DNA of 64,000 bases from Planctomycetota bacterium (GTDB lineage: Bacteria > Planctomycetota > UBA11346), in contig JBBQCI010000001.1 of the NCBI GenBank assembly GCA_038318565.1, positions 42,724 through 106,723 on the forward strand. Direction: 5' to 3'. The notes beneath the pieces were generated by a model, which had not been told where the DNA came from, searched no databases, and saw nothing but the letters and a program-made list of their open reading frames with translations. A program made the translations under genes and the position numbers. This document shows, piece after piece, positions 7,660-59,246 of the stretch (within the stretch, counting starts at the first letter, position 1; each line of letters starts with the position of its first letter).

Positions 7660-10161
7660 ATGCGCTCGCGTTCACACATTCCGACCCACCTCTCGCCGCT
7701 TTTGCTGGCTATCGCCGTCCTGGCGCCTGCCGCGGAAGGTGGGCCTGCGCCGACTCCGGCACCCGCTCCAGCCGCGGTCGAACAGACTGCCCGGCCGGGC
7801 GAGGCCGAGGTCGCAGCTGACGCGGCTTATGCCGAAGCGCTGGCCAAGTATCGAGCAGGCGCCTTCGCCGAATCGCTCGAGCTGGTCGATCGCGCCGTCC
7901 AGCTATACCCGCCGCACGCTGGCGCCCAGCAGCTGCGCAGCGATGTGCTTGCCGTGCTCAACAACCGTGACAACCGCCTCAAGATGGCTGCTGCCTGGTT
8001 CGGCAGCCTGCAGGACGTCCGCACCCAAGAGACCGCCGTACGGCTGGCCGCCCTGCTCGAACGCGGCGACAAGGCGATGGCGGCGGGCGATTTCGAATCA
8101 GCGGAGCTGGACTACGATCGCGTCGACATCGGTATCCGCTCGTTTCCTTTTGCCTTCGAATGGGGCGAACTGCCCAAGCAGGTCGCCGCCAAGCGAGCCG
8201 AGGCCAGCGACAAAGTGCGCCTACGTACCATTCAGCGCCAGACCGATGACCGTCAGGCCGCTGCCGACACGGCCAAACGCCAAGCCGATCTCCAGGCCGA
8301 AGGTCTGCGCCTGAAGGTCGACGAACTCATGCGTCGCGCCAAGACCGCATACGACCGCAAAGATTACCGTCGCTCCGAAGTCGAGTCGTGGAACGCCTAC
8401 GAGTTGGATCGGCGCCGCGACGACGCTCGCGAACTCTATCTCGCGTCACGCCGCGAAGGCCATTACCAGTTCGATGGCCAATACCGTGTCGAGCGCGCCG
8501 AAGGCATCGCCCGGGTTTCGGAGGAGATCCACAAGGCGCTGGTTCCGCAGAATGAACTGCTGGTCTACCCGGAAGATTGGCGCCGCCGCACTCTGCGTAC
8601 TCCGCGAGAGATCGGCACACAGAAGGCCGAACCGTGGATGGCGGCCCTCAACGACCGCCTCGAACAGCGCGTCACCTTCGACTTTCAGGACCAGTCCTTT
8701 GAAGACGTCGTTGCCTTCCTCCGTCAAGTGACCGGAGTCAACATCATCGTTAGCCCGCAGGTCCTGGCCACCGCAGGCGGCGGCACGGTGACCCTGAAGG
8801 TGCGCGAGATGCGCTTCCGGGATGCCCTGAAATGGATCCTGGAAATCACTGGCTGGAAGATGGCTATTCAGGATCAAGCCATCTTCATCAATAATGAGGT
8901 GATCACTGGCGCGGCAGCCCTGCGTCTCTACGACGTCACTGACCTGATCACACCGGTGCGAGACTTCGCAGGTGTCGAACTGGCGTACGCTGCCGGTGGC
9001 GGCGCAGGCGGCGCTGCAGGCGGCGGACTGTTTGGGGCCGGCGGTGCCGAAGAGACTGGCGCAGCGCAGGATCCCCAAGAGTTGGTGGACTTCATCAAGA
9101 ACAACGTCACCAAAGACCAGTGGGGCCAGAACAATATCGACGTGCAGCAGCGCAGTGGCTCGACCCTGTTCGTCAGTCACACTCCGGAAGGTCACGAACT
9201 GGTCGCCCGTCTGCTCGCCAACCTGCGCAAGCAGACGGCCTTGCAGGTCAATGTCGGCGTCCGCTTGTTGGATGTGCGCAAAGGCTTCTTCGAAGAGATC
9301 GGCGTCGCCTGGACGGACAATCCCGCTGGATTCCTGAATAACACTGGCGCCGCGTCACTTCCTGGCAGTTTAGCAAACGGCACACCCGTTGATAGTCTGG
9401 AAGGCTGGACGACACGTCGCAATATGAATGGGGAGGCGGGTTACGTCGCTGACGGTTCGATCACCCAGAACCTGCCTGGTAACCGCACCGGGTATATTGC
9501 CCGCGGCCTAACCCTGGAAGGATCGCTGAACTCATCGAACTTCCTCAATGCTGATCAATTGAACGCCATCTTCACCGCCTCTGAGGACGAAACCGACTCG
9601 ACCGTGGTTCAGCATCCGATGCTCAGTTGCTTCAATGGTCAACGTGCCAATGCGACGTTCATCAACCAGTATGCGTTCATCTCCGACTACGAGATCGTCT
9701 CGGGCAACTACGACCCGGTGATCACGGTGCTGAACTACGGTAATATCCTGGATGTGCGTCCGGTTGTTTCCAGCGACCGCAAGTACATCACCATGGAGAT
9801 CCGACCCACGGCTGTCAGCTTCGTCGAATCAACGACGGAGACGATCATCGGTGTGCAGATCATCAACACTGGCGACATCGGGGTTGTCATTCCTGGCGTC
9901 GGGTACCCGATCGAACTGCCCAACATGCTGGTGCAGACCTTGCGCTCGACCGTCATGTTGCCCGATCGTGGAAGCCTCCTCATTGGCGGATTCAACCAGT
10001 CGACGCGTGTACGCAGCCACAGTGGCGTGCCGTTCCTCAGCCACATCCCGTTCCTCGGACGGCTGTTCAGCAAGAACGGCATCTACGACGACAACCGCAG
10101 GTCCTTTTTCCTGCTCAACGCGACCATCATGGACCTTACCGAGGCCGAGTCGCAGCAGTGA
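7660..10161 (+). CDS. secretin (GspD/PilQ family) paralog 1, 833 aa
   Basis: It has a signal peptide and an Arg/Asp/Glu-rich helical N-terminal region. An STN-like domain follows (VTFDFQDQSFEDVVAFLRQVTGVNIIV...ALKWILEITGWKMAIQ), then an N3-like domain. The C-terminal secretin domain ends with GVPFLSHIPFLGRLFSKNG. Confidence 0.85.
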   Translation: MRSRSHIPTHLSPLLLAIAVLAPAAEGGPAPTPAPAPAAVEQTARPGEAEVAADAAYAEALAKYRAGAFAESLELVDRAVQLYPPHAGAQQLRSDVLAVLNNRDNRLKMAAAWFGSLQDVRTQETAVRLAALLERGDKAMAAGDFESAELDYDRVDIGIRSFPFAFEWGELPKQVAAKRAEASDKVRLRTIQRQTDDRQAAADTAKRQADLQAEGLRLKVDELMRRAKTAYDRKDYRRSEVESWNAYELDRRRDDARELYLASRREGHYQFDGQYRVERAEGIARVSEEIHKALVPQNELLVYPEDWRRRTLRTPREIGTQKAEPWMAALNDRLEQRVTFDFQDQSFEDVVAFLRQVTGVNIIVSPQVLATAGGGTVTLKVREMRFRDALKWILEITGWKMAIQDQAIFINNEVITGAAALRLYDVTDLITPVRDFAGVELAYAAGGGAGGAAGGGLFGAGGAEETGAAQDPQELVDFIKNNVTKDQWGQNNIDVQQRSGSTLFVSHTPEGHELVARLLANLRKQTALQVNVGVRLLDVRKGFFEEIGVAWTDNPAGFLNNTGAASLPGSLANGTPVDSLEGWTTRRNMNGEAGYVADGSITQNLPGNRTGYIARGLTLEGSLNSSNFLNADQLNAIFTASEDETDSTVVQHPMLSCFNGQRANATFINQYAFISDYEIVSGNYDPVITVLNYGNILDVRPVVSSDRKYITMEIRPTAVSFVESTTETIIGVQIINTGDIGVVIPGVGYPIELPNMLVQTLRSTVMLPDRGSLLIGGFNQSTRVRSHSGVPFLSHIPFLGRLFSKNGIYDDNRRSFFLLNATIMDLTEAESQQ

Positions 10162-47517: not shown

Positions 47518-49563
47518 TCACCCGTGGACGAATCCATCCCGATACACCGTTCCGGTCAGATACGGCGCCCAGTTCTTCTCAAAGAAGATGCGGGCTGGAT
47601 CCTCCATGCCACGCAAGTCGGTCGACGAAACGGCAAAGCCGTCACGCCAGGTCACAGTCAGTTTCTGGCGACGTTGCTCCGGCCGTTCCTCGCGAAAGCG
47701 ATAGGCCGAGCAGTCGACGGATACGGCTTCGGGCATCTTTGTGCCGGCGGCATCGCAATAAGCACGTGCGCCTCGACTGCCACCACCGGAGACCAAGTAG
47801 GAGTCGAGCGCCGTGAGCACGGCCTCGGACAGCAGGGCTTGATGCCGCCATCGGAAGGCTTCTGCCGAACGTTCGGGCGTGACGCTAATGCCATCCCTGA
47901 TGACGCGAACGCGCAGGGCGCGCGCCGCGGCCAGGGCGGACGGAACCTCGGCCACCGGGCAGATAAAGCCGGCATGGTCGCTCATGCGCGCCTGAATCTC
48001 ATCACGCACGGCTGGGGCAGTCAGTCCGCTATCAGTGCGGGTGATTGCCAATGCGTTTCGGGCCGCCGCCTGCACCGCGGCGATCTCTATACCCGGACGC
48101 TGTGGACGCTCGGACGACAGGTGCTTGGCAACGCGCACGCCCATGACCTGGCCGGCGTTCAGGGCCGCACCGCCAGGACGGGTGACGCCATGGGTGCCGG
48201 CCACCTCACCCAAGGCGTAGAGTCCAGAGATGCTGCTGCGACCCCAGGTATCGACCTGCACACCGCCATTCATGTGCTGATTATTGACGTTGAACGGCAG
48301 CGGCTCGCGCGCGAGATCCGTTCCGTGCATGCGATACAACTCGATGGCGAGCGGATTCATCCGTCGCAGGCGCTCAATCGGGGTGGGCAGCAGGGCGTCG
48401 TTGTTGGCGAGGTAGCTACGCGCATCGTCGTCCAGGTCATCGAGCGAGAAGCCGGTCGGATTGCGCGTGAAGTCGAGACAGATGGTACGACCGAGGCGCG
48501 ATTCATGATGGATCGCCAGGTCGACCAGACTGGAGCCGAAGGCCAGCATGCGGCTGGCGTGGAACGGCCACTGGTAGCCCTTGCGGAAGACGTTGCTCGC
48601 CGCCTCACACGGTGAGCGATACCACGACTGGAGAAACTCACGCTCAGTTCCCGCAGCATCGCGACTGAAGATGCGCGGCACCACCTGCACGTAGGTTCCA
48701 GAGAGGTTCCACGGAAACTCCTGGCGGCGCGTGCCGATGCCGAACTGACTCTCGGTCAGATTGCACACCGCTGCACCGGATTCGATCGCCATACCGAGCG
48801 AGCCGTAGCAGTGGCGCGGATAGACGCTGTCCCGGTATAGCTCTCCGGGACCGCCCGTTGCCAGGACGGTTGCACCGGCCAGCAGCACGCACAGTCCCTG
48901 GGGATTGGCTCCTGGTCCCAGTTCGCGATCGACGGCGATGGCGCCCAGGCAACGTCCCTCGCTGACGATCAGATGAACCGCCTCGCAGCGACGACGGATG
49001 GTGACGCCGAGTCGCAGAGCCTCTTCGGCCAGCACCTTGACCATGAGGCGCGAGGTCCGCGGGCCGCAGCTGGTGGCGCGACCGACGTCATCATGGTCGG
49101 TCTGGTAGCGCAGCACCGCGCCGAAACGGTCGGTCGGCAGCGGCAAGCCGAGATACTGCAGTCCAGCGAATGCGCCGATCGATCCAACCGCTTCCACATA
49201 GGCCTGATCGAGATCCATCGCCCCGCCGGCGCCAATGTCGCTGGCCAGCTTGACGAAGTTGTCGCCTTTGTTCGATGTTCCGGCAGTATGGATGGTCTGC
49301 TTGTCCGATCCCGAGCAGGCCGACGTTCCGCCAAACGGACTCATCGTCGCCACGGTCACTTCAAGCCCAGCACGGTTGGCTTCAACAGCGGCCCGCAGAC
49401 CAGCGGCACCGCTACCAATTACCAGGACAGCTGTTCGCAGTACCGGCATGCGGACACTGTGCACATCAATGTGTTCGGTTAGGGCTGGAGATTCGGGCAG
49501 TGCCGGCATGTCGACGCGGGTCAGGGCGTCGAGGATGGCCTGGGGGACATCGATGGGCATCAC
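47518..49563 (-). CDS. FAD-dependent oxidoreductase (FAD_binding_2 / fumarate-reductase-flavoprotein-like fold)
   Basis: It has the dinucleotide-binding motif VLVIGSGAAGLRAAVEANRAGLEV. It is 681 aa. It is the last gene of the eda-SDR operon, and its start overlaps the SDR stop. Confidence 0.6.
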   Translation of the reverse strand: MMPIDVPQAILDALTRVDMPALPESPALTEHIDVHSVRMPVLRTAVLVIGSGAAGLRAAVEANRAGLEVTVATMSPFGGTSACSGSDKQTIHTAGTSNKGDNFVKLASDIGAGGAMDLDQAYVEAVGSIGAFAGLQYLGLPLPTDRFGAVLRYQTDHDDVGRATSCGPRTSRLMVKVLAEEALRLGVTIRRRCEAVHLIVSEGRCLGAIAVDRELGPGANPQGLCVLLAGATVLATGGPGELYRDSVYPRHCYGSLGMAIESGAAVCNLTESQFGIGTRRQEFPWNLSGTYVQVVPRIFSRDAAGTEREFLQSWYRSPCEAASNVFRKGYQWPFHASRMLAFGSSLVDLAIHHESRLGRTICLDFTRNPTGFSLDDLDDDARSYLANNDALLPTPIERLRRMNPLAIELYRMHGTDLAREPLPFNVNNQHMNGGVQVDTWGRSSISGLYALGEVAGTHGVTRPGGAALNAGQVMGVRVAKHLSSERPQRPGIEIAAVQAAARNALAITRTDSGLTAPAVRDEIQARMSDHAGFICPVAEVPSALAAARALRVRVIRDGISVTPERSAEAFRWRHQALLSEAVLTALDSYLVSGGGSRGARAYCDAAGTKMPEAVSVDCSAYRFREERPEQRRQKLTVTWRDGFAVSSTDLRGMEDPARIFFEKNWAPYLTGTVYRDGFVHG

Positions 49564-50351
49564 AACCTCCGTAACTGGAAGCCACCGTCTACGTCGATCA
49601 CCGTCCCGCTGCTGAATGGGAAATCGCCGGCAACCAGCGCCTTCACCGCCAATCCGACGTCTTCGCCGGTACCCCAGCGGTTCTGCGGCACCAGGCCCTG
49701 GGCGATCAGTGCGTCGTACTTGCCGGTGACGCCCGCAGTCATGTCGGTCTTCATGATGCCTGGGCGCACTTCATAGACCATGATGCCCTCTGGTGCCAGG
49801 CGAGTCGCCCACAGCTGCGCCGCCATCGCTACTCCGGCTTTGCTGATGCAATAGTCGCCACGCATGATTGAGGCGGTATGCACGCTGATCGAGGTGCAGA
49901 ACACCACCGAGCGGTAGCGGACCGCCGGTTCATACGGCTTGCCCAGCCAGTGCTTGGCCACTAGCTGGGTGAGAAAATATGGACCCTTGGTGTTGATGCC
50001 TACCAACCGATCGAAGCTCTCTTCGCCGGCATCAAGGATGTCCGCTCGCACGTTTGGGGCGACTCCGGCGTTGTTCACCAGACTGTCGATGCGGCCAAAG
50101 GCGGCGAGTGTTGCGTCGAGCAGGGTCTGACGTTGGCTCGCCTGGCTGATATCCCCCTGCAGCGGGATGAACCGTTGCGCGCAATCCTGTGCTGCGGTAC
50201 TGCACAGCTGCGCGCATTCCTCAGCAGCGCCTGCGTTGCCGGCGTAGTTGATACCGACGCTCCAACCGGCCTTTGCCAGTTCGAGGGCAACCCCACGGCC
50301 GAGTCCGCGCGAGGCACCCGTAACCAGGGCTACGGGAAAGGTCATGCGCAC
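49560..50351 (-). CDS. SDR-family oxidoreductase (KduD/FabG-like)
   Basis: The cofactor motif is TGASRGLGRGVALELA. NNAG is present, and the catalytic YxxxK is in GDYCISKAG. 263 aa. Confidence 0.8.
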   Translation of the reverse strand: MRMTFPVALVTGASRGLGRGVALELAKAGWSVGINYAGNAGAAEECAQLCSTAAQDCAQRFIPLQGDISQASQRQTLLDATLAAFGRIDSLVNNAGVAPNVRADILDAGEESFDRLVGINTKGPYFLTQLVAKHWLGKPYEPAVRYRSVVFCTSISVHTASIMRGDYCISKAGVAMAAQLWATRLAPEGIMVYEVRPGIMKTDMTAGVTGKYDALIAQGLVPQNRWGTGEDVGLAVKALVAGDFPFSSGTVIDVDGGFQLRRL

Positions 50352-50986
50352 TCCTTGGCGACGGCAACGGCCTCAGCCGTCAAACGGGTGATCTCGGCCC
50401 AGTTTCCCGAAGCTATCAGCTTCGGAGCCACCATCCAGGTACCACCGATGGCGAGAACTCCTGGGGTCTTCAACCAATCACGCAGGTTGCCAATCTCGAT
50501 TCCACCAGTCGCCACAAAGCGCACGCCACGATGCTGGTACGGCGCATGCAGCGACTTGATCATCGGGATACCGCCGGCTGCGACCGCGGGGAAGAATTTC
50601 AGCGCCGTGCATCCTAGTGACAACGCCCGTTCGACGTCACTGGGTGTACACACGCCTGGCCAGAACGGCAAGCCACTCGACTGGGCGAGTTTGACAATGT
50701 CGGGATTGCAGCCCGGAGCGACCGCGAATCTGGCCCCGGCCTGTTTCGCGGCAGCGACCTCCTCGGGCATGGTGACGGTGCCAGCTCCAAGGATGAATTC
50801 GGGGAAATCCCGGGCGACCGTGGCGATGGCCTCCCGAGCCGCTGCGGTGCGGAAGGTGATCTCGGCAACCTGAAGACCGCCTGCAGCAAGAGCTCGGCAG
50901 AGCGGTTCAGCATCGACTGCTCGTTCGATAACGATCACGGGTACGATGCGGGCGGCTGAGACTTCGGCGAGGATATCGGTGGGCAT
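50342..50986 (-). CDS. eda: 2-dehydro-3-deoxyphosphogluconate / 4-hydroxy-2-oxoglutarate aldolase
   Basis: The sequence reads VPVIVIERAVDAEPLCRALAAGGLQVAEITFRTAAAREAI...GAGTV...KFFPA...ATGGI. This is the typical Eda class I aldolase pattern. Confidence 0.85.
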   Translation of the reverse strand: MPTDILAEVSAARIVPVIVIERAVDAEPLCRALAAGGLQVAEITFRTAAAREAIATVARDFPEFILGAGTVTMPEEVAAAKQAGARFAVAPGCNPDIVKLAQSSGLPFWPGVCTPSDVERALSLGCTALKFFPAVAAGGIPMIKSLHAPYQHRGVRFVATGGIEIGNLRDWLKTPGVLAIGGTWMVAPKLIASGNWAEITRLTAEAVAVAKECA

Positions 50987-51021
50987 GCTGACATGCTACA
51001 ACGGGCCGACGCTGTGGCAAG

Positions 51022-51046
51022 CCGATCATATATGATATATGATCGG
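51022..51046. promoter_or_regulatory. 25-bp AT-rich near-perfect palindrome (putative operator) in the divergent eda promoter region
   Basis: The sequence CCGATCATATATGATATATGATCGG is an AT island in a roughly 66% GC genome. It lies 36 bp upstream of the eda start. It shares the core GATCATATATGAT with the site at 57525. Confidence 0.5.
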
Positions 51047-51105
51047 TAGACGCGCCGAGAACCGGGTGACTTGCGCATGACCAGTCGTGGCAACGCTGCC
51101 GCGCC

Positions 51106-52380
51106 ATGCTTGGAACCTTGCGGCGCATCACCTGGTGGCAGACCCTGATCCTCATCGGATGCCTGTTTGGCATCTTCGTGGCCTGTCTGGCCATGTGGCT
51201 TCGCAGTACCAGCGATCTGATAGCCGTCGATGCACGGGCCCGCCAGCTGCGGTTGCCAACTGGCCTGACGAATATCGCCTTTGCCAGCGCCACTCCCGCA
51301 CGCATCGCCGACTGGCAACGGCTGCTGACCCTGGGTGAACAGCTCAAGCCATGGTCGGAAAGCGAACCCGCCAAGGGCTGGACGCCGATTCCTGGTCAGG
51401 CACTGCCTGACGGTTTGGCAACTCATCATGAAGCACTCGACAAGGCGCTGCTGGTCGAATCGGCAGACATCCTCGGCCGTCTCGGTGATGCGCCAATCGA
51501 TGCCCACCGCGACCTGTCGCCAGCTGCCACGTTGCCCGACGTCACCGCCCTGCGCCGGCACATGCGCCTGCGCTGTGAGCGGATCCTGCTGGCGCCGTCT
51601 GCCGATCTGCCAGTCGAGATCAGCCGAGCCGCGGCCCTGATCCCTGCGCGCGAACCCCTTGGCCTGCTCCGTCTGATGGTCCAGGCCAATCTGATCGAGC
51701 AGTGGTCTACCGCTGTGATCATGCGCTCCGCTGATCTCGGCGCTGCTAAGGCCGCGATCGCCGATCAAGCGCGCGGCCTCGCCCCACTGGCTCCTCAAGG
51801 GCTGGCCGTTGCCTGGCGAAACGACCTCGCGTCTTTGCGTGGCTTCGTCGCCACCGCAGATCCTGCCGCCGTGTGGAGTCGACTAGGTCGGGACGGTGGT
51901 TTGTTCTCGTTCGACGCCTGGGGCTTCGCCATCGCCCTGCGCGCCGGCCGCGCCGAGACCATCACGCTGATGCAGGACATCGCCGTCGCCCAGGGCGAGG
52001 CGCTGGATGCAGCACGCCAGCTTGCTGCCACCCGGACAGCCGAGGCGATCGCACGGCAAGCCTCGTGGTGGCGGCCTGGCACCCTCCTGCCAGCCATGAC
52101 CCTACCCGTAGCGACCCCGGTCGTAGCAGGGGCGCACACGGCCCGGCTTCGGCTGCTGGTGCTGGCGGCCGAACTGACAGGCGAGGCTTGGCCGATCGAC
52201 CAACTCGATTCATCCGGCAAACCAGTACGGCGGGTCGAGCGCGCCGCCACGCTGATCGGGGCCTACAGCGTCAGCGCCGACGGCGTGGATGACGGCGGAC
52301 ATTCCCAAAACGACCGCTGTTGGCCGCTGTACGCCCCCTTGGGCAGTCCCAAGGCCGGGGATCCACTGCCCGCACCGTGA
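51106..52380 (+). CDS. hypothetical signal-anchored protein
   Basis: N-terminal TM helix WWQTLILIGCLFGIFVACLAMWL. 424 aa. Ala/Leu-rich and helical. No family recognised. Confidence 0.4.
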   Translation: MLGTLRRITWWQTLILIGCLFGIFVACLAMWLRSTSDLIAVDARARQLRLPTGLTNIAFASATPARIADWQRLLTLGEQLKPWSESEPAKGWTPIPGQALPDGLATHHEALDKALLVESADILGRLGDAPIDAHRDLSPAATLPDVTALRRHMRLRCERILLAPSADLPVEISRAAALIPAREPLGLLRLMVQANLIEQWSTAVIMRSADLGAAKAAIADQARGLAPLAPQGLAVAWRNDLASLRGFVATADPAAVWSRLGRDGGLFSFDAWGFAIALRAGRAETITLMQDIAVAQGEALDAARQLAATRTAEAIARQASWWRPGTLLPAMTLPVATPVVAGAHTARLRLLVLAAELTGEAWPIDQLDSSGKPVRRVERAATLIGAYSVSADGVDDGGHSQNDRCWPLYAPLGSPKAGDPLPAP

Positions 52381-52428
52381 GACTAGACGACGCCCGCCGC
52401 CTGCCACCCTTCCCGCCCGGAGCCCCAC

Positions 52429-53346
52429 ATGCCCGTCCGCGCCATCATCCACGCCGGTCTTGCCGGCATCGAACTCACCACGCCTGCCTTGCGTCTAATC
52501 GCCGTTCATGGTGCGGGGCCACGCCTCGCCTGGTTCGGCGCCTCGGCCGGCGACAACCTTCTGCTGTGGGACGACCAACAGCCGCTGAAGTACGTCCGTC
52601 AGGTGTCTGGTTTCGCCAAACCCTGGTCGCTACGCGGCGGCCACCGCGTCTGGACCGCACGCTTCGGCGCCGACGAGGACGAGCAGACCTACGCCAACGA
52701 TGATGCCGCTGGTACCGGAACAGTAAGCCCCGACGGCTTCACCGTCACTGGTGCGCTCTGCCGCGAAACCTTCAGCCGCCGTTCGATCAGCGTGCGCATT
52801 CTGCGCGACGATCGTCTGGAAGTGATCAACCGCATCATCAACGAAGGCGACATGCTGCTCGGCTGCGGACTGTGGGCGCTGACCTGCACCAAGCCCAATG
52901 CGGACACCCGTTATGTCATCCCACTGGGTGACGGTTCGTCGTGGGATACCGCCACGATCACCACCTTCCGCACCTGGGCCGGGCACGGCACCGGCAGCTT
53001 CCGCGAAGAGCAGTTCGAGACGACCGACGATGCCTACGTCCTGACCCCACGGGGCCGCGAGACCAAGCGCATGGTCGGCACGCCAGCCGGCAGCATCGCC
53101 ATGATTGATCCGGCTCGTAATCTGACCTTTGCGATCAGCACCACCTGGGAGCCGCGCGCGACCTACCCAGCCAATGCGAACATCGCCATGTACGTCGGCC
53201 CTGCGAACTTCATGGTCGAGATGGAGACGATGGGTCCACACGCTGTGCTGAAGGCTGGCCAGTCGCTGGAGCACCGTCAGGAGTGGACCCTCGCCAAGGG
53301 CACCATCCCACTGACCGGCGCTGCGGTGCGCGGCCTCACCGCCTGA
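52429..53346 (+). CDS. hypothetical protein (beta-rich; possibly sugar-related given its neighbours)
   Basis: 305 aa. No family recognised. It is embedded in the sugar-catabolic block. Confidence 0.4.
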   Translation: MPVRAIIHAGLAGIELTTPALRLIAVHGAGPRLAWFGASAGDNLLLWDDQQPLKYVRQVSGFAKPWSLRGGHRVWTARFGADEDEQTYANDDAAGTGTVSPDGFTVTGALCRETFSRRSISVRILRDDRLEVINRIINEGDMLLGCGLWALTCTKPNADTRYVIPLGDGSSWDTATITTFRTWAGHGTGSFREEQFETTDDAYVLTPRGRETKRMVGTPAGSIAMIDPARNLTFAISTTWEPRATYPANANIAMYVGPANFMVEMETMGPHAVLKAGQSLEHRQEWTLAKGTIPLTGAAVRGLTA

Positions 53347-53406
53347 CATGACGACAGTCCGCGCGTAGACTTCAGTTCGTTGCTTCAGCTGTTGCTTCAG
53401 CTGTTG

Positions 53407-54213
53407 CTACGGCTGTCCTGACAACCACGCGCTGGGGCTGCTTCCGGTAGCTGCCCTGAAGCGATGGTTGAAGTGGCTCTGGCTGCCAAATCCGCAGGCC
53501 AACGAGACATCGAGCAGGGTGCCTCGCCGTGCGCGCATCATCCGCTGGGCCTCGCGCAGGCGAATGTCCAGCAGGACATCGCCGATGGTGCGACCGGTAC
53601 GGGCGCGGAAGCGGGCCAGGAACTGCGAGCGACCAAGCGGGCCAAGCGCCACCAAGTCGGCGACGCGCACCGGCGTCATGTAATAGTCCTCAAGCCATCG
53701 GCAGGCCTGGTCGATTTGGCGATTGCCGGCAGCGACGGCGTCGGTGTCGGCAGTAGGCGCCTGCTGGGCATCGCGAGCCAGCGCAACGACAGCTTCGACG
53801 ACCAGGGCCTGGGCAGCCGGTCTGGCACCCAAGGCGGATGATGTCCATTCCCGCTCGGCCCGGTGGAGCAGCGCCGCAACCCGCTGACCCGTTGAAGATC
53901 GAACCGGCAGACGATTGGACTGCGCGGCAAGGTCCGAGATCCGGCCCAGCAGTACGCCAGCCTCTGCAGGCAGTTCGCCAGACGCCACGTTCAGCACCAC
54001 CGCACTGAACGTCTCATCCCGACCGGTCGCGCTCATGTGGGGGCATCCGATCGGATAGACGAAGACATCGCCGGGTACGCACGGGATGTCTCCTGTGCCG
54101 GTCAATTGCCGACCACGCCCCCGCTGGACCACAAGGAACTCGATGTCGTTATGCACATGACGATTCCCGGTCGGGTTGGTCAGGGCATGGGCCTGGAACG
54201 CCAGCAGGATCAT
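53407..54213 (-). CDS. AraC-family transcriptional regulator (cupin sensor domain plus HTH)
   Basis: The C-terminal HTH is LDVSLACGFGSQSHFNHRFRAATGSSPSAWL. The N-terminal cupin-like region reads VVQRGRGRQLTGTGDIPCVPGDVFVYPIGCPH. I chose the start at ATG 54213 to avoid overlapping the divergent MocA gene. The ORF is open to 54564. Confidence 0.7.
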   Translation of the reverse strand: MILLAFQAHALTNPTGNRHVHNDIEFLVVQRGRGRQLTGTGDIPCVPGDVFVYPIGCPHMSATGRDETFSAVVLNVASGELPAEAGVLLGRISDLAAQSNRLPVRSSTGQRVAALLHRAEREWTSSALGARPAAQALVVEAVVALARDAQQAPTADTDAVAAGNRQIDQACRWLEDYYMTPVRVADLVALGPLGRSQFLARFRARTGRTIGDVLLDIRLREAQRMMRARRGTLLDVSLACGFGSQSHFNHRFRAATGSSPSAWLSGQP

Positions 54214-54273
54214 GCCGGACGATACCACAAGCACCGGCGTGTGCGAGGGCAAGACACAGGCTGCCGGGGAGAT

Positions 54274-55317
54274 ATGCTGTTCGCCATGAGCACCCCCCTC
54301 CGTCTCGTCATCACCGGCTGCGGCGGCATCGCCGCCGCGTGGCTCGACAATCTGGTCAAGCGCGACGATGTCGCGCTTGCTGGCTTCGTCGATCTCAATC
54401 CGAAACGGGCGGCCGAGCGGGCCGAGCAGTACGCCAAAGGCGCCGCCACCGGTAGCGATCTGGCGGCCATGATCGACCAGGTGAAGCCCGACATCGTCAT
54501 CGACTTGACCATCCCCGATGCTCATGCCGACGTCGCCTGTCTTGCCCTCGGCAAGGGCTGCCATGTCCTGTCAGAGAAGCCCATGGCCGCCACTATGGAG
54601 GGCGCACGACGCATCCTGGCCGCCACCACGGCGAGCGGACGCACCCACGCGGTGATGCAGAACCGCCGCTGGCTGCCCAGCATCCGTCGCTACCGCGAAG
54701 CCGTGCTGGGCGGTTCGATCGGCCGGCTGACGGAACTGCACGCAGATTTCTTCATCGGTGCCCATTTCGGTGGTTTCCGCGACACTATGCGGCACGTCCT
54801 CCTGCTCGACATGTCGATCCATAGCTTCGACCAGGCCCGCTTCATTGGCAATCTGGAGCCGGTGGCGGTGCATGCGACCGAGTGGAATCCGCCCGGTTCC
54901 TGGTTCGCCCATGGTGCATCTGCCTTGGTCTGCGTCGAATGCGCTGGCGGCGAGCGGATTACTTATCGCGGCAGCTGGTGCAGCGAGGGCGCCAACACGT
55001 CGTGGGAATGCGCCTGGCGCGGTGTCTGCACCGGAGGCACCGCACTGTGGGATGGCCATGACGAGATCCGCGTCGATGCCGTCGACTTGGGAAAGGATGG
55101 GTGCATCCGGCCAAAACGCGAAGTCGCTGCCCCGCCGCTGGTGACACTCGATTTGACCCAGCACGCCGGATGTATCGACGATATGCTGACGGCAATCAAG
55201 ACCGGCAAGCAGCCAATGACCACCGGAAGCGATAATGTCAAGTCGCTGGCCATCGTCCATGCCGCCATCACCAGCGCAGACCGTGGTGGGGCCCGCGTCA
55301 CTATTGACTCGATCTGA
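54274..55317 (+). CDS. Gfo/Idh/MocA-family NAD(P)-dependent oxidoreductase
   Basis: The Rossmann N-terminus is LRLVITGCGGIAAAWLDNL, followed by the MocA C-terminal alpha/beta domain. A GGGGAG ribosome-binding site precedes ATG 54274. An alternative start is at 54286. Confidence 0.75.
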   Translation: MLFAMSTPLRLVITGCGGIAAAWLDNLVKRDDVALAGFVDLNPKRAAERAEQYAKGAATGSDLAAMIDQVKPDIVIDLTIPDAHADVACLALGKGCHVLSEKPMAATMEGARRILAATTASGRTHAVMQNRRWLPSIRRYREAVLGGSIGRLTELHADFFIGAHFGGFRDTMRHVLLLDMSIHSFDQARFIGNLEPVAVHATEWNPPGSWFAHGASALVCVECAGGERITYRGSWCSEGANTSWECAWRGVCTGGTALWDGHDEIRVDAVDLGKDGCIRPKREVAAPPLVTLDLTQHAGCIDDMLTAIKTGKQPMTTGSDNVKSLAIVHAAITSADRGGARVTIDSI

Positions 55318-55416
55318 GAGTGATCGCTTAAGCCCGGGCCTGTGTTGGTACCTGAGATCATCCTGCCTTTGCTTCCAACATAAAACTATCCAGCATATAA
55401 CATCCAAGGGGCATCC

Positions 55417-56310
55417 ATGACCACCCATCCTCTCCACGATATCCGCATCGGCACCCTGGTCGGCGGCGGTGCCGACACCGTCGACAAGCTGAAATTCCTC
55501 CTGCCGCATGGATTCGAGAGCTTCTCGATCACCTTCTGGCAGCAGCTTGGCGACACTCAGCTGCCGCGCCTGGCCGAGGAGGTGCGCAAGACGCTGGCTG
55601 GCACCAACACGGTGATCAGCAGCATCGGCGTGTTCGGTAACCCGCTGGAAACCACCGAGATCGACCTCAAGACGCTGGCTGGCTGGGAAGTCGCCATCGA
55701 CCACGCCAAGGATTTCGGAGCCGATATCGTCTCGGGATTCACCGGACGTGTGCGCGGCAAGAAGTTGGACGAAAGCATCCCGCGCTTCAAAGAGGTCTTC
55801 GGCCGTCTCGCCGACCGCGCCGCGGCCAAAGGCGTGCGACTGGCGTTTGAAAACTGTGCCATGGGTGGCGATTGGGGGTCCGGCGACTGGAATATCGCGC
55901 ATGGCCCGGATGCTTGGGACCTGATGTTCAACGCCGTGCCGGCCAAGCATATCGGCCTGGAGTGGGAGCCCTGCCACCAGATGGTCCGTCTGTGCGACCC
56001 ATTCCCGCAGTTGGACGACTGGCATCAGCGTATCTTCCACATCCATGGCAAAGATGCCTCGATCGATCATACGCGCCTGCGGAAGTACGGCTTCGGCGCT
56101 TCGAAAGAATGGTCGTGGCACCGTACCCCGGGCTTCGGCGACAGTGACTGGACGGCAATCATCAGTCGGCTTCGCCAACACCAGTTCAAGGGCTCGATCG
56201 ACATTGAAGGCTGGCATGATCCGGTCTACCGCGGCGACCTTGAATACACCGGCCAGGTCCATGGCTTGAACCACTTGATCCGCTGCCGCGGCGGCAAGAC
56301 GCCCGTCTAA
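55417..56310 (+). CDS. sugar phosphate isomerase/epimerase (xylose-isomerase-like TIM barrel)
   Basis: 297 aa. The pattern ...GFESFSITFWQ...AKDFGADIVSGFTG...LAFENC...HIHGKD... matches the AP endonuclease 2 / TIM-barrel family. Confidence 0.75.
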   Translation: MTTHPLHDIRIGTLVGGGADTVDKLKFLLPHGFESFSITFWQQLGDTQLPRLAEEVRKTLAGTNTVISSIGVFGNPLETTEIDLKTLAGWEVAIDHAKDFGADIVSGFTGRVRGKKLDESIPRFKEVFGRLADRAAAKGVRLAFENCAMGGDWGSGDWNIAHGPDAWDLMFNAVPAKHIGLEWEPCHQMVRLCDPFPQLDDWHQRIFHIHGKDASIDHTRLRKYGFGASKEWSWHRTPGFGDSDWTAIISRLRQHQFKGSIDIEGWHDPVYRGDLEYTGQVHGLNHLIRCRGGKTPV

Positions 56311-57524
56311 GTTGTAGCCAACCCGTCAACCGCCGCACGTAGTCGCGGCAGGTCGGCGGGGGTTACCCATGCGGGGCGCGGCGCCCAGGCGAAACCCTGG
56401 TCGCACGGATGCGTGCCATCGGCCAGGAATCGTGCGCTGGCATCCAGGATTCCTGGCATGGTTCCATTGCACGTCGGTTCTTGGCCGATCCGACCGGTCG
56501 ACAGATGGGCGAGCGCATTCAATCGCACAAACGATCGTGCGTCCGCCAAGGTGGTCGCCGGACGTCCACTACCGGCAGCCACCAGGGCGCAGGCAGCCTG
56601 CATGTTCTCATACTGGTGCTGGTTCACGGCTCCGCTGATCACCTCGTCGGGACGTCCAGGGCGGATGATGCGGACACGTTCAGCTTCGTCCGGACGGATC
56701 CGGATGAGCGCATCCCCGCACTGCATCTCCTCGATTGGATCGGTATTGCGCTCGCCAGCATGAGTCACAGCGATGCGTACGGGGACCGCCTCGGTGGCGA
56801 CCTCGACCAAAACCGTGTCGGCCCCCTGGATAAGGTGGGCACGCATCAGGCTGGCCCGAACCCGCAACGCCTGTCCAAAGCCATCCTGTGTTCCACCGGC
56901 CCAATGCAGGGCATCATGGACGAAATGGGCCATGGCATTGCCAAGCGGTCCATCGAGTACCAACCGATCGCGCAGGACCAAGCGACCCGCCCAATCGGCA
57001 CGGCCATAATATGCGTCGTTACGCTGCCAACTGACGAACACCCGCACCGACTGCAGGGGTCCGAATTCCCCAGTCAGGATCCGCCGTTTGACCGCCTGAC
57101 GGATCGGATCGCGGATGAAATTGAAACCAACCCAGGTCGGGATCGCGGCGGTGGCATCGACAGCGATCATCTGCTCCAACTCGTCGGGGTCGAGCGTCGG
57201 CGGCTTCTCCAGATAGACCGCGAGGCCACGACTCACGCAGACCTGATGCATCGAAGCGTGCAATGGGACCGGTGTCGGAATAGTGACCAGCTGCAACGTC
57301 TGGCCATGCTCACGCAGCATCGCGTCCAGATCTGGCAGCACCGCCACCCCACGTTCGGCCAGTCGTAGTTCTGGCGTCGCAGCAATCAGTTCTGCGGCAC
57401 GCGGATCGCACGTAGCGACCACCCGTACGGCACCCTCCTGCTCGAGGCGCTGGAGGGCGCGATGATGCACCGTGGCGTAGCCGCCAAGACCGACAACGGC
57501 GACGGGAAGAGGCTGGGTGCTCAT
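56307..57524 (-). CDS. Gfo/Idh/MocA-family oxidoreductase
   Basis: The Rossmann N-terminus is LPVAVVGLGGYATVHHRAL. 405 aa. Its stop overlaps the isomerase gene end. Confidence 0.8.
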   Translation of the reverse strand: MSTQPLPVAVVGLGGYATVHHRALQRLEQEGAVRVVATCDPRAAELIAATPELRLAERGVAVLPDLDAMLREHGQTLQLVTIPTPVPLHASMHQVCVSRGLAVYLEKPPTLDPDELEQMIAVDATAAIPTWVGFNFIRDPIRQAVKRRILTGEFGPLQSVRVFVSWQRNDAYYGRADWAGRLVLRDRLVLDGPLGNAMAHFVHDALHWAGGTQDGFGQALRVRASLMRAHLIQGADTVLVEVATEAVPVRIAVTHAGERNTDPIEEMQCGDALIRIRPDEAERVRIIRPGRPDEVISGAVNQHQYENMQAACALVAAGSGRPATTLADARSFVRLNALAHLSTGRIGQEPTCNGTMPGILDASARFLADGTHPCDQGFAWAPRPAWVTPADLPRLRAAVDGLATT

Positions 57525-57548
57525 CCTTAGATCATATATGATCTAAGG
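57525..57548. promoter_or_regulatory. 24-bp perfect AT-rich palindrome (putative operator) abutting the start codon of the MocA oxidoreductase
   Basis: The sequence is CCTTAGATCATATATGATCTAAGG. It is an exact palindrome directly 5' of the ATG at 57524. Its core is identical to the site at 51022. Confidence 0.5.
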
Positions 57549-57567
57549 ACGACACAACCCTTCATCC

Positions 57568-58629
57568 TCAGAAGCCGACCGGACCACCTGGACGGGGGGC
57601 ATCGGCTGGCGGAGCATTGGCGTCAGCCGGTGCATCGGGACGACGACGCATCCCACCGCCGCCAAATCCTCCCGGACCGCCACGCCCGCCCACCATGCCA
57701 CCCATAGCACCGCGCATCCATCGCAAGGCCGGAGAATCTGCGCTGACTTCCCAACCGCCGTCAACCAGCTTCAGCTTCAACGGCAGGGTCTGTTCGGCTG
57801 CAAAGGCGGTGAAGCGTACGACAACCGTGATGGTGCCGTCCGCATTGGCTGGCTCGGCAACGACCTTGGCCGAAGCGAAGGCCGCGTCAGCATCAAGTCC
57901 GTAGACAGCCAAGGCCTGCTTCAGGCGCGGCAGTCCAGCAGACCAGGCTGCCAGCAGGGTGCGAGACGGATCGACGGCGGAGGGGGCATCCGGCTTCGCT
58001 GCCGTGGCGGCCCGCACCGCAACCGCAAAAGCCTGAAGATGCGGCTGGGCGGCAGCGGCGCGTTGCTCATCGGTCAACGGGGCAGTCGCTGCCCACGTGG
58101 CAAAGCCCTTAGACCAGGTGTCGATGGCCGCGATCTGCCTGCTCTCTTGACCCTGGGCCAGTATGCCACTCATGATCCCGATGAGCATGCCGCCCGCCGC
58201 CATGCGCGGGACGAAGGCGAGGAACGGCTGGTCGGTCGGCAGCTGAACACTGGCCGGGGCCTTGCCGTCGAGCGACACCGTTCCCGCCATGGCCGCCAGG
58301 GTCGCGGCAAGGATGCGTCCACCCTGAGCCGCCTGATCGCCTTCAGCAAGCATGCGCAGTGGCATGTCGAGCGTGCGCCCGCCGCGTGGTCCGCCACGCT
58401 GACGGTCTGTTCCGGGGGCTCCTTCAGCCGGTGCCGGCGAAGTCGGCTGCGAGAGCGCCGCCGACCAGACCTTACGCTGCGCTTCGGGCAGGGCGTCCCA
58501 GGCGGTGGTCAGATCGTTGGCCTGCATGGCCTTGATCCAACTACCGACCGTCGCTGCCGGATCCGGAGCATCACCGGCGTACGCAGCCGCGAGCACCAGC
58601 ATGAGGATGAAGGAGCGGAATGCGGTCAT
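57568..58629 (-). CDS. hypothetical secreted protein with a Gly-rich C-terminal tail
   Basis: It has a signal peptide MTAFRSFILMLVLAAAYA and an Ala-rich helical body. The tail is GGMVGGRGGPGGFGGGGMRRRPDAPADANAPPADAPRPGGPVGF. Confidence 0.4.
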   Translation of the reverse strand: MTAFRSFILMLVLAAAYAGDAPDPAATVGSWIKAMQANDLTTAWDALPEAQRKVWSAALSQPTSPAPAEGAPGTDRQRGGPRGGRTLDMPLRMLAEGDQAAQGGRILAATLAAMAGTVSLDGKAPASVQLPTDQPFLAFVPRMAAGGMLIGIMSGILAQGQESRQIAAIDTWSKGFATWAATAPLTDEQRAAAAQPHLQAFAVAVRAATAAKPDAPSAVDPSRTLLAAWSAGLPRLKQALAVYGLDADAAFASAKVVAEPANADGTITVVVRFTAFAAEQTLPLKLKLVDGGWEVSADSPALRWMRGAMGGMVGGRGGPGGFGGGGMRRRPDAPADANAPPADAPRPGGPVGF

Positions 58630-59246
58630 GGTTTCTCCAAAGTCGGGAGCGTAGTCTTGGTCGGAGCGAGCGGAACCTGCTCCGGATCGTCCGGCGCACT
58701 GCGGATGTCGATGGTGATCTGAACCTTGAAGGTGCCGGTCGGATAGAGGCGTTTGTAGGCCTCGGCCATCTTGGGCAGACCTTCTTGGACGCGCACCAAC
58801 AGACGCAGGCAGTCCTGCAGATCGCTCTGCAGACGCGAGCGCTCGCCGTCCTCTTTCAGTTTGGCGATCTCAGCACGCAGCTTGTCGGCGTCGGTCAGCA
58901 ACTGCCGTGGGCGCGGCACCGCAGCGATGGTACCGGACAACAATATCTCAGTCCCGTCGCGCCGGACGGTCAGCTCGATCGGGGCATCAACAGTTAGTGG
59001 TGCGAGCGCAACAGCAACCTCGGCGGTGGTTGTCACCGGGGTGGTCCCGATACGCATCAAGCGGTCGCCAGGCTTCACGCCCATGCGGTCGGCACTGGCT
59101 CCGGCCGCGACCTGAGTCACCCGCAACGGGGGCGCGTCGGCGACCTCCTCCAGGTCGAGACCAAGCCAGATCGGTTCTGAGGAGACGACCGCCTCGCCAG
59201 TACAAGCGAGGGCGGCCAACAACAGGGCCAGCAGGCAGCGCGACAT
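58626..59246 (-). CDS. secreted PDZ-domain protein (no protease domain)
   Basis: It has a signal peptide MSRCLLALLLAALACTG. The PDZ domain reads WLGLDLEEVAD...LRVTQVAAGASADRMGVKPGDRLMRIG, with a GLGF-like loop. 206 aa. Confidence 0.6.
   Translation of the reverse strand: MSRCLLALLLAALACTGEAVVSSEPIWLGLDLEEVADAPPLRVTQVAAGASADRMGVKPGDRLMRIGTTPVTTTAEVAVALAPLTVDAPIELTVRRDGTEILLSGTIAAVPRPRQLLTDADKLRAEIAKLKEDGERSRLQSDLQDCLRLLVRVQEGLPKMAEAYKRLYPTGTFKVQITIDIRSAPDDPEQVPLAPTKTTLPTLEKP

Follow-up and report, generated by a model that had tools for sequence, protein, structure and literature searches.

The evidence supports the view that two palindromes in the DNA of an uncultured Planctomycetota bacterium represent one common class of functional cis-elements of sugar and sugar-acid catabolic genes. 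The window, that is, the whole stretch of DNA analysed, is 64 kb long with a GC content of about 63%. We tentatively believe, at slightly less than an even chance, that the palindromes serve as operators within two leaderless promoters for a symmetric regulator (a dimer or a tetramer), and that this regulator is encoded outside the window. Both sites are ordinary in kind, being local regulatory sites with few targets. The palindromic motif was not found in the literature searched. The original prediction described two near-perfect palindromes; both were present as described and are in fact perfect.

51022-51046, no strand: site 1, perfect 12+1+12 palindrome of 25 bp, CCGATCATATAT-G-ATATATGATCGG
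51024-51044, no strand: conserved 21-bp core of site 1, GATCATATAT-N-ATATATGATC
57525-57548, no strand: site 2, perfect 24-bp palindrome, CCTTAGATCATATATGATCTAAGG, with the core GATCATATATGATC at 57530-57543
57522-57551, minus strand: extended dyad of site 2, arms up to 15 bp; with one G-T pair the dyad reaches 57521-57552

Both palindromes recur with the same sequences in assemblies from JGI, ENA and Logan that are independent of one another, and are therefore not assembly artefacts. The common core, predicted to be 13-14 bp, corresponds to the 13 nt exact stretch GATCATATATGAT shared by both sites. Site 1 consists of the 14-bp core plus an internal 7-bp repeat (ATATGAT), and its core is readable as three heptads (GATCATA/TATGATA/TATGATC). 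The sequence ATCATATATGAT occurs exactly twice in the window. With up to 2 mismatches it gave 4 matches against 0.53 expected, a number reached by 0 of 100 shuffles, and the two palindromes are thus far beyond chance. The half-site ATATGATC was found in the window at sites 1 and 2 only, and about 218 kb of clade DNA held no further copies of the motif. The genes around the two sites are listed below.

47518-49563, minus strand: FAD_binding_2 oxidoreductase gene (Pfam)
49560-50351, minus strand: SDR gene (Pfam)
50342-50986, minus strand: eda, KDPG/KHG aldolase (Pfam)
47518-50986, minus strand: eda-SDR-FAD operon, conserved in L121, L122, L124 and L129
51106-52380, plus strand: divergent 424-aa gene, no family match
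51106-53346, plus strand: divergent gene pair of 424 aa and 305 aa, the latter with a weak mutarotase-like match
53407-54213, minus strand: AraC/cupin regulator, syntenic with the cluster
56307-57524, minus strand: Gfo/Idh/MocA oxidoreductase, 405 aa, ATG at 57524

Site 1 lies in the divergent promoter region upstream of eda-SDR-FAD, between eda (minus) and the 424-aa gene (plus), where it had been placed. The ortholog of the 424-aa gene in L022 has no motif upstream, which indicates that site 1 travels with eda. Site 2 had been placed directly against the Gfo/Idh/MocA start codon, and its end does abut the ATG (57524-57522, minus strand). This ATG is the sole possible start, given the in-frame TAG upstream of it and a Rossmann motif that starts at residue 8.

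The predicted link to sugar and sugar-acid catabolic genes was borne out, as each site is kept at an orthologous promoter in related Planctomycetota. Because the palindromes stay at the same promoter spots across related species, we consider them real control elements. A dyad-symmetric site was retained in 9 Gfo orthologs and 5 eda lineages while the flanking non-coding DNA diverged, and even the neighbour genes changed. The core of site 2 had 0-2 mismatches in 8 of the 9 Gfo orthologs (63-100% protein identity) and always ended 5 nt ahead of the ATG. The gene just upstream of Gfo varied (a 353-aa gene, a histidine kinase or another) and was co-directional in all nine; none of them had a divergent gene at site 2. 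The L126 ortholog had 5 core changes and still formed a 13-of-15 palindrome. The 21-bp form of site 1 was kept in the five eda lineages (70-100% identity; L121, L122/123, L124/125 and L129-131 among them). It always stood 2-3 nt upstream of a TTGNCN hexamer (TTGCCC, TTGACC or TTGACT in the orthologs), regardless of the upstream gene. Divergent genes flank site 1 in four of these lineages; in L122 the upstream gene is co-directional and the site is unchanged. L129 carries a symmetric change of C4/G18 to A/T, which fits pairing as well as protein. One other genome, GCA_022841245.1, has both sites (L019 and L121), and the motif is present at two functionally linked units in that genome as in the window.

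Both palindromes are embedded in predicted promoters of the layout TTGnnn-15/16-TAnnnT-6-ATG, the elements of which are as follows.

50993-50998, minus strand: eda -10-like hexamer TAGCAT, 6 nt ahead of the eda ATG, in leaderless geometry
51015-51020, minus strand: eda -35-like hexamer TTGCCA, 2 nt past the 21-bp core and 1 nt past the 25-bp palindrome
57531-57536, minus strand: Gfo -10 hexamer TATGAT, within the right arm of site 2, 6 nt ahead of the ATG
57552-57557, minus strand: Gfo -35-like TTGTGT, with a 15 nt spacer to the -10; its TTG (T10, T11, G12) is invariant in 9 orthologs

The Gfo promoter therefore reads TTGTGT-15-TATGAT-6-ATG and the eda promoter TTGCCA-16-TAGCAT-6-ATG. Across the clade, TAnnnT peaks 5-7 nt and TTGC 33-35 nt before start codons. 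Judged from sequence, the Gfo and eda transcripts appear to be leaderless and to start from sigma-70-type promoters; both genes show the features of this type, including no Shine-Dalgarno sequence at working distance. If Gfo is leaderless, site 2 spans -24 to -1, the -10 hexamer included. Site 1 would lie at -38 to -58 relative to the putative eda start. TAnnnT at the exact Gfo -10 spacing was kept in 9 of 9 orthologs (TACGAT in L020, TACGGT in L126). The -10 hexamers of AraC, the second Gfo and eda drift between the same genomes, whereas the TATGAT of site 2 does not.

We suggest that the 14-bp dyad GATCATA/TATGATC at Gfo would occupy the stretch from the -35 element to the start, with its right half serving as the -10 hexamer. 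A bound protein would exclude RNA polymerase, and the expected outcome would be repression since the dyad overlaps the -10. The 21-bp version at eda-SDR-FAD may be regarded as two overlapping 14-bp dyads offset by 7 bp, and a protein bound there could block or recruit polymerase. The sites would thereby couple a sugar dehydrogenase to the 2-keto-3-deoxy-sugar-acid branch (aldolase, SDR and, in some relatives, PfkB kinase). To our knowledge, almost nothing is known of Planctomycetota promoters and regulons. If the operator reading is true, this would be a first conserved operator-like motif to connect a Gfo/Idh/MocA dehydrogenase with the keto-deoxy-sugar-acid branch, together with sequence-level evidence for leaderless promoters of the form TTGC-N15-17-TAnnnT-N5-7-ATG in this clade. 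Such a promoter form would improve gene-start calling and regulon prediction in MAGs of the clade.

The original prediction proposed a dimeric operator of the LacI, GntR, IclR or a similar type. A shared conserved cis-element was supported, while a binder from these families was not established. The cognate regulator was indeed not obvious: the 64 kb window contains no LacI, GntR or IclR gene, and the transcription factor genes found in it were only AraC and an OmpR-type response regulator. In the divergent promoter of AraC, within the intergenic region shared with the second Gfo, the conserved box is a different one, CTTGCCCTCGCA, and there is no palindrome. AraC is therefore probably not the palindrome binder, which agrees with the doubt expressed earlier. 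The candidate regulator comes from one related lineage only (L124/L125), in which a divergent IclR-family gene adjoins PfkB, site 1 and eda. This IclR-like protein has no homolog in the window or in any other compared locus, and its 6 homologs in the protein collection form a very small divergent group. The search for a LacI, GntR or IclR gene with its own site gave none in the window, and the 40 nt that precede the start of the L124 gene hold no palindrome. As to the concern that the motif might occur at only two sites with no regulator, two sites were found in about 218 kb of clade DNA, and an IclR-like gene stands beside the site in L124.

In the IclR family, A/T-rich palindromes are reported as the binding sites of certain regulators, including KdgR, and three-box sites as those of some (PMC8222616). 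By analogy, our sites would resemble a KdgR-type regulon. In both cases an A/T-rich palindrome precedes an eda-type aldolase operon with an SDR, a PfkB kinase gene is divergent in some relatives, and an IclR-fold regulator adjoins in L124; site 1, at about 21 bp, is a palindrome of odd length, and for the family both three-box sites and binding as tetramers are described (PMC8222616). Unlike in those regulons, no IclR gene lies in the window, the L124 protein is from a small group, and there is no consensus match: by inspection, GATCATATATGATC and GATCATATATCATATATGATC did not match group 1 GKTYCRYW3-4RYGRAMC, group 2 TGRAACAN1-2TGTTYCA or the KdgR motif (PMC8222616). The Gfo dyad is also comparable to repressor operators over the -10 and start, because it spans -24 to -1 with the -10 hexamer and occupancy by a protein or by polymerase would be mutually exclusive. 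It differs from them in that Gfo is putatively leaderless, with the site also abutting the start codon, and in that the flanks of site 2 co-vary and stay self-complementary. Such species-varying, self-complementary flanks are unusual for an operator, and protein contact does not predict them. The operator reading is further strained because the 14-bp and 21-bp forms differ by 7 bp in where they place the GATC ends, so one rigid dimer cannot read both sites alike. The -10 within site 2, the covariation of its flanks and the changed core of L126 leave room for promoter-only or structure-based explanations.

The first of these, which we regard as rather unlikely, holds that the AT-rich dyads are near-consensus -10 hexamers on both strands. 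They would be symmetric or bidirectional core promoters with neither a dedicated regulator nor a selected structure. Hairpin-templated template switching in replication (concerted evolution of the arms) would have generated the palindromic form and would preserve it, species-specific flanks included. Template switching has been reported to produce and sustain perfect hairpins along with seemingly compensatory changes (PMC8794818), and flank symmetry was weakest in L022 and L023, where an upstream ORF was called across the left arm. Hexamers resembling -10 elements are present on both strands at sites 1 and 2, and TATGAT 6 nt before the ATG is the usual leaderless geometry of the clade. A common bidirectional layout, with coinciding -7T and -11A on the two strands and starts 18 bp apart (PMC10268837), is matched by TATCATA at the centre of site 1, and a divergent gene stands there in 4 of 5 lineages. 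As far as the account of Warman et al. 2021 in PMC10268837 goes, the likeness is one of hexamers on both strands of an AT-rich dyad; the differences are that the 14-bp core has its hexamers back-to-back (starts about 25 bp apart) rather than overlapping, that site 2 lacks a divergent gene, and that every dyad position is conserved. GC-rich metagenome contigs of unrelated origin also contain the identical 14-mer, for the most part in intergenic DNA, where it precedes a start codon by 5-7 nt or separates closely spaced divergent genes (L092, L085, L057, L030 and the 10-member L027 family). However, the hit count (96 stretches) was near the rough chance expectation, so these hits inform on position only and not on enrichment. 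Against the promoter-only explanation, the left half of site 2 is kept in 8 of 9 orthologs despite having no divergent gene to serve, site 1 is unchanged beside the co-directional gene of L122, -10 hexamers elsewhere in these genomes vary freely, and downstream of site 1 eda possesses a conserved -35/-10 pair of its own.

A structural role for the palindrome is rather unlikely in our estimation. Here a read-through RNA stem-loop would bury the AUG and would end or insulate the co-directional upstream transcript, so that only the leaderless transcript from the embedded -10 would be translated; in the DNA version, a supercoil-dependent cruciform would hide the -10. Conservation of the AT-rich core would follow from the right arm being the -10, with which the left arm has to pair. 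From species to species the 5-bp flanks of site 2 change, but their complementarity is retained, and two positions show 4-5 pair types; 88% of cells were paired compared with 25-40% in slid controls, and the covariation score of 0.336 (controls at most 0.098) was reached by 0 of 500 shuffles. In the extended dyad, the upstream CGT pairs with the Gfo ATG via one G-U pair, and this stem onto the start codon (pairs 16-45, 17-44 and 18-43) is formed in 7-8 of 9 orthologs. Mismatches were mostly G-T on the sense strand (7 G-T/T-G vs 2 A-C). The compensatory changes of L126 fall mostly at degenerate -10 positions and their partners, leaving TACGGT-6-ATG. Strong folds were predicted in six orthologs from five lineages (-22 to -30 kcal/mol, z -3.5 to -6.7), and the co-directional upstream gene of every Gfo ortholog would supply the read-through transcript. 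In L020, L022 and L023, however, the extended hairpin is absent (z -0.5 to -1.1) while the 14-bp core, with its left half GATCATA, is kept, so neither the -10 element nor a stable stem accounts for that half. In 4 of 5 lineages the genes on either side of site 1 diverge, so that no sense transcript would cross it, and the flanks of site 1 showed no complementarity in the orthologs. Neither hairpin is followed by a T-run or appears in the terminator scan, which gives no Rho-independent terminator at either palindrome. Rfam 15 gave no family match with E up to 1 at positions 50000-59000, and other tandem leaderless genes of the clade have no similar hairpin. A structural role also leaves unexplained why the same core stands at two separate sites in several genomes.

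Start-codon-sequestering stem-loops and cruciform-gated promoters are known classes. Site 2 is like them in its 12-15 bp stem containing the AUG and the -10 region and in its strong predicted folds in five lineages; it is unlike them in that the transcript of Gfo itself should have no leader, features for sensing a ligand or temperature are not evident, and the stem is lost in three lineages. A more specific proposal, which we hold to be doubtful, is a 24-30-nt self-complementary module, acting by structure and not as a protein site, that combines in one stem a leaderless gene's -10, transcription start and start codon. The AUG would be paired to an upstream CAU or CGU and read-through RNA would be ended or made untranslatable, or a cruciform would gate the promoter. 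We know of no earlier description of such a promoter-in-a-hairpin insulator for leaderless genes.

That the sites have no part in regulation and derive from a mobile or dispersed palindromic repeat (REP/MITE type or transposon ends), as remnants or as copies, is highly improbable and largely refuted: perfect palindromes distinct in composition, and a 7-bp internal repeat by which site 1 differs from site 2 and which could recall a duplication footprint, would suit it, but the copies number two in the window with no others in the clade DNA, each keeps an orthologous, fixed distance from a start codon or -35 element across species, no transposase/RAYT-like gene was seen among the scanned neighbours, and the 80 loci that the metagenome scan listed for the core flanked by GC belong to 57 unrelated families, with one host-lineage locus among the matches listed, which is site 2 (L066).

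The site 2 palindrome co-varies in the manner of an RNA stem. A long minus-strand ORF at 54571-56274 is not a called gene; on identical metagenome contigs the genes called in this stretch are on the plus strand and encode a second Gfo protein and an AP_endonuc_2 protein. In relatives, KDPG aldolase, SDR and PfkB genes are found near fucosidases, rhamnosidases and sulfatases.

Both AT-rich palindromes of the original prediction were present in the window, whose mean G+C is about 63%, and the same sequences were found again in independent JGI, ENA and Logan assemblies. The gene map was based on Pfam matches and gene calls on identical metagenome contigs.

47518-50986, minus strand: FAD_binding_2 oxidoreductase, SDR and eda genes
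51022-51046: site 1, CCGATCATATAT-G-ATATATGATCGG, perfect 12-nt arms and one central base
beyond site 1 and before the AraC gene, plus strand: 424-aa and 305-aa genes
53407-54213, minus strand: AraC/cupin regulator gene
between the AraC and 405-aa Gfo genes, plus strand: second Gfo gene and AP_endonuc_2 gene
56307-57524, minus strand: 405-aa Gfo/Idh/MocA gene
57525-57548: site 2, CCTTAGATCATATATGATCTAAGG, perfect 24-mer
beyond site 2, all minus strand: 353-aa gene, two PDZ genes, histidine kinase and OmpR-type response regulator genes

Site 1 comprises the 14-bp core of site 2 plus an internal 7-bp repeat, and can also be parsed as three heptads (GATCATA/TATGATA/TATGATC). The 12-mer ATCATATATGAT occurred exactly twice in the window. 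With up to two mismatches, four matches were found against 0.53 expected, a number reached in none of 100 shuffles. A weak third site at 15684 (GATCATGAATGATC) lies within a 1016-aa ORF, did not turn up elsewhere and was taken as chance. Another perfect palindrome (14+1+14), GGAGGCATGCCACC-G-GGTGGCATGCCTCC, was seen at 7458-7486, near the 3' end of a 630-aa ORF. A 125-aa ORF at 53464-53841 on the plus strand, antisense to the AraC gene, was called in two assemblies. This call is probably spurious, because the AraC frame gives clear Pfam hits to HTH_18 and AraC_binding.

The nearest genomes were uncultured Planctomycetota MAGs. The ortholog group of the 405-aa Gfo protein is sharply bounded (63-100% identity, the next at most 47%), and nine upstream regions were aligned: the window, L019, L128, L020, L024, L126, L127, L023 and L022 (L numbers denote the other loci compared). 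A TAnnnT hexamer stood exactly 6 nt before the ATG in all nine (TATGAT in seven, TACGAT in L020, TACGGT in L126), with an invariant TTG 18 nt upstream of it. The entire 14-bp dyad was kept with 0-2 mismatches in eight of the nine. The gene upstream of site 2 differs, being the 353-aa gene, a histidine kinase gene with an ORF that terminates within the motif as D-H-I-stop, or another, which indicates that the element belongs to the Gfo start. This ATG is the sole possible start, with an in-frame TAG 21 nt upstream and the Rossmann motif from residue 8, and no Shine-Dalgarno sequence was found there at a working distance. The histidine-kinase ORFs upstream of Gfo in L022 (about 2292-2303) and L023 (about 9982-9993) end GAT CAT ATA TGA, the palindrome itself supplying their last three codons and the stop.

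For site 1, the upstream regions of the eda orthologs L121 (from the same MAG as L019), L122/123, L124/125 and L129-131 were aligned. A 21-bp form was present in all eda lineages traced: GATCATATATCATATATGATC in three, AATCATATATTATATATGATC in L124 and GATAATATATCATATATTATC in L129, where C/G is symmetrically replaced by A/T. The gene upstream varied between lineages: the 424-aa gene, a 304-aa gene and a PfkB kinase gene are divergent, and a 262-aa gene is co-directional. Directly downstream of site 1, a promoter-like pattern was kept, TTGCCA-16-TAGCAT-6-ATG in the window, where the promoter scan agreed, and TTGCCC-16-TAGACC-6-ATG, TTGACC-16-TAGGAG-8-ATG and TTGACT-18-TATCCC-7-ATG in the orthologs. 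The motif is absent upstream of the L022 counterpart of the 424-aa gene; site 1 was therefore assigned to eda and rejected as a promoter of the 424-aa gene. Judged by its conservation, the element is functional.

Start-codon geometry was surveyed in called genes of related loci (L001, L010, L011, L022-L024, L121, L122, L124, L128 and L129). TAnnnT peaked 5-7 nt before start codons (14 of 37 hexamers; 90 genes, operon-internal ones left out), and TTGC peaked at 33-35 nt (14 of 35 occurrences; 126 genes). In another group of genes, Shine-Dalgarno sequences peaked at 6-9 nt. The AraC gene (TGnTATCGT-5-ATG) and the second Gfo gene showed the same leaderless layout. Promoters of this planctomycete clade look leaderless. 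From the clade peaks and the layout of these two genes, we infer that Gfo and eda are transcribed as leaderless mRNAs, and the palindromes look like elements embedded in leaderless promoters. On this basis, site 2 would occupy -24 to -1, -10 hexamer included, and the site 1 core would occupy -38 to -58, immediately upstream of the -35 element. Examples of such leaderless-looking stretches in the window are 54214-54224, 50987-51020 and 57525-57557.

Our leading hypothesis, held tentatively, is that the palindromes are candidate operators of a regulator protein. Of all readings, this one explains the most. It accounts for a dyad conserved at full length at two linked promoters in several genomes, for a left half conserved where no stem can form, and for the dyad being more stable than the ordinary -10 hexamers of those genomes. 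The sites also lie where regulators typically bind. It does not explain the flank covariation at site 2 and the L126 variant, described below, unless co-evolution or concerted evolution is invoked, and it has no regulator to go with it.

Alternatively, the palindromes may be promoter sequence only, a symmetric -10 region aided by template switching (PMC8794818) and bidirectional promoter symmetry (PMC10268837). We consider this unlikely. It would cover the promoter geometry and the fact that the 14-mer recurs elsewhere, and it does not cover the conservation of the left half at site 2. The recurrence came from a metagenome scan that required an exact core and G or C at flank positions 4 and 5 (SSNNN-core-NNNSS), which gave 96 stretches. 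Matches on GC-rich contigs were mostly intergenic, often 5-7 nt before a start codon (L092, L085, L057, L030). Others lay between tightly divergent genes, among them a ten-member orthologous family of 65-70% GC (L027, L041, L045, L047, L054, L059, L063, L073, L087, L096). In this family an identical 14-mer separates chorismatase-like and DUF2062-methyltransferase genes starting about 13 and 20 nt away, which looks like a compact bidirectional promoter. The GC-rich matches fit a role of TATGAT as a -10 hexamer in unrelated bacteria, with leaders that are very short or missing. The 14-mer's neighbours in these other contigs had no common theme (esterase, ADH, M24 peptidase, FAD protein, gluconolactonase, GntR with aldehyde dehydrogenase), and we deduce no shared regulator from them. 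In L061, an unrelated GC-rich contig, the 14-mer (822-835) adjoins an aldehyde dehydrogenase gene and lies 34 nt upstream of a GntR/FCD regulator gene (870-1526).

The motif is new and its kind is familiar, with one odd feature: site 2 is symmetric in a way that partly resembles a nucleic-acid stem. The five bases flanking each side of the site 2 core are species-specific, yet complementary: CCTTA/TAAGG in the window, CCCGG/TCGGG in L019 and L128, TCCAG/CTGGA in L127, CAGCA/TGCGG in L024 and CCGCC/CGCGG in L126. In the nine-sequence alignment, 88% of flank cells were paired versus 25-40% with slid partners, and in two flank columns four to five kinds of pair occurred. The covariation score was 0.336 versus at most 0.098, and was reached in none of 500 shuffles. 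Three extra pairs extended onto the start codon (CAT or CGT opposite ATG) in seven to eight of the nine sequences, and mismatches were mainly G-T on the sense strand (seven G-T/T-G versus two A-C). The L126 core carried five changes (GACCGGATACGGTC), four of which make two compensating pairs; 13 of the 15 pairs of its 30-bp dyad remained, with TACGGT-6-ATG retained. Strong RNA folds (-22 to -30 kcal/mol, z -3.5 to -6.7) were predicted for the window, L019 (the L128 palindrome is identical), L024, L126 and L127. Those of L020, L022 and L023 were not strong (z -0.5 to -1.1), though the 14-bp core was kept.

A palindrome acting as a nucleic-acid stem would cover the covariation, L126 and the start-codon pairing. 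We regard this as unlikely, to much the same degree as the promoter-only reading. It fails at site 1 in divergent contexts and in the three lineages without a stem, and it needs the shared core to be a coincidence. The site 1 flanks of the orthologs showed no complementarity, with a single symmetric change seen, and the flank covariation was not reproduced in the unrelated L027 family. Rfam gave no match to a known RNA, and a canonical terminator was rejected, there being no T-run at the palindromes.

Origin as a mobile repeat is highly improbable: the number of stretches, 96, is close to what a rough estimate gives for chance, and hence no dispersed family exists. The original prediction had allowed for a dispersed repeat; instead, the 80 loci listed of the 96 stretches made up 57 unrelated families, and only one of them, L066, came from this lineage and was site 2 itself. 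Clade DNA totalling about 218 kb contained the motif at the two orthologous places only.

Returning to the operator hypothesis, a gene of the regulator families first proposed (LacI, GntR, IclR) was not found among the roughly 30 window ORFs with Pfam and NCBIfam. The only regulators among them were the AraC/cupin protein and the OmpR-type response regulator. A box, CTTGCCCTCGCA, in the divergent region between the AraC and second Gfo genes (about 54214-54273) was conserved in three lineages, including L023 and L128, and is likely an AraC site distinct from the palindrome. This intergenic region contained no palindrome. With a different conserved box in its own promoter, AraC is unlikely to be the binder, which bears out the doubt first expressed about it. 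Likeness to Fur or FNR boxes was dismissed by inspection, because spacing and orientation do not fit their consensus sequences. Nothing relevant to the exact motif was found in a literature search.

In a survey of the IclR family, palindromic A/T-rich motifs (IclR, KdgR) are described together with three-box sites and binding by tetramers, and the present motif does not match its consensus sequences (PMC8222616). A 249-aa gene adjoins PfkB, site 1 and eda in L124 (8105-8854) and L125 (3088-3837). Its homologs numbered only six among 5.8 billion proteins, with none in the window or any other locus compared. Sequence profiles and a predicted structure mark the protein as a divergent IclR-family regulator. 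It had no precomputed Pfam hit, its HTH_IclR and IclR_C matches were below threshold, and a profile matched the IclR homolog 5h1a (4.4e-6). The model had a mean pLDDT of 77.8, and its top 43 Foldseek matches were all full-length IclR-family proteins, the best being PcaR (1.9e-14).
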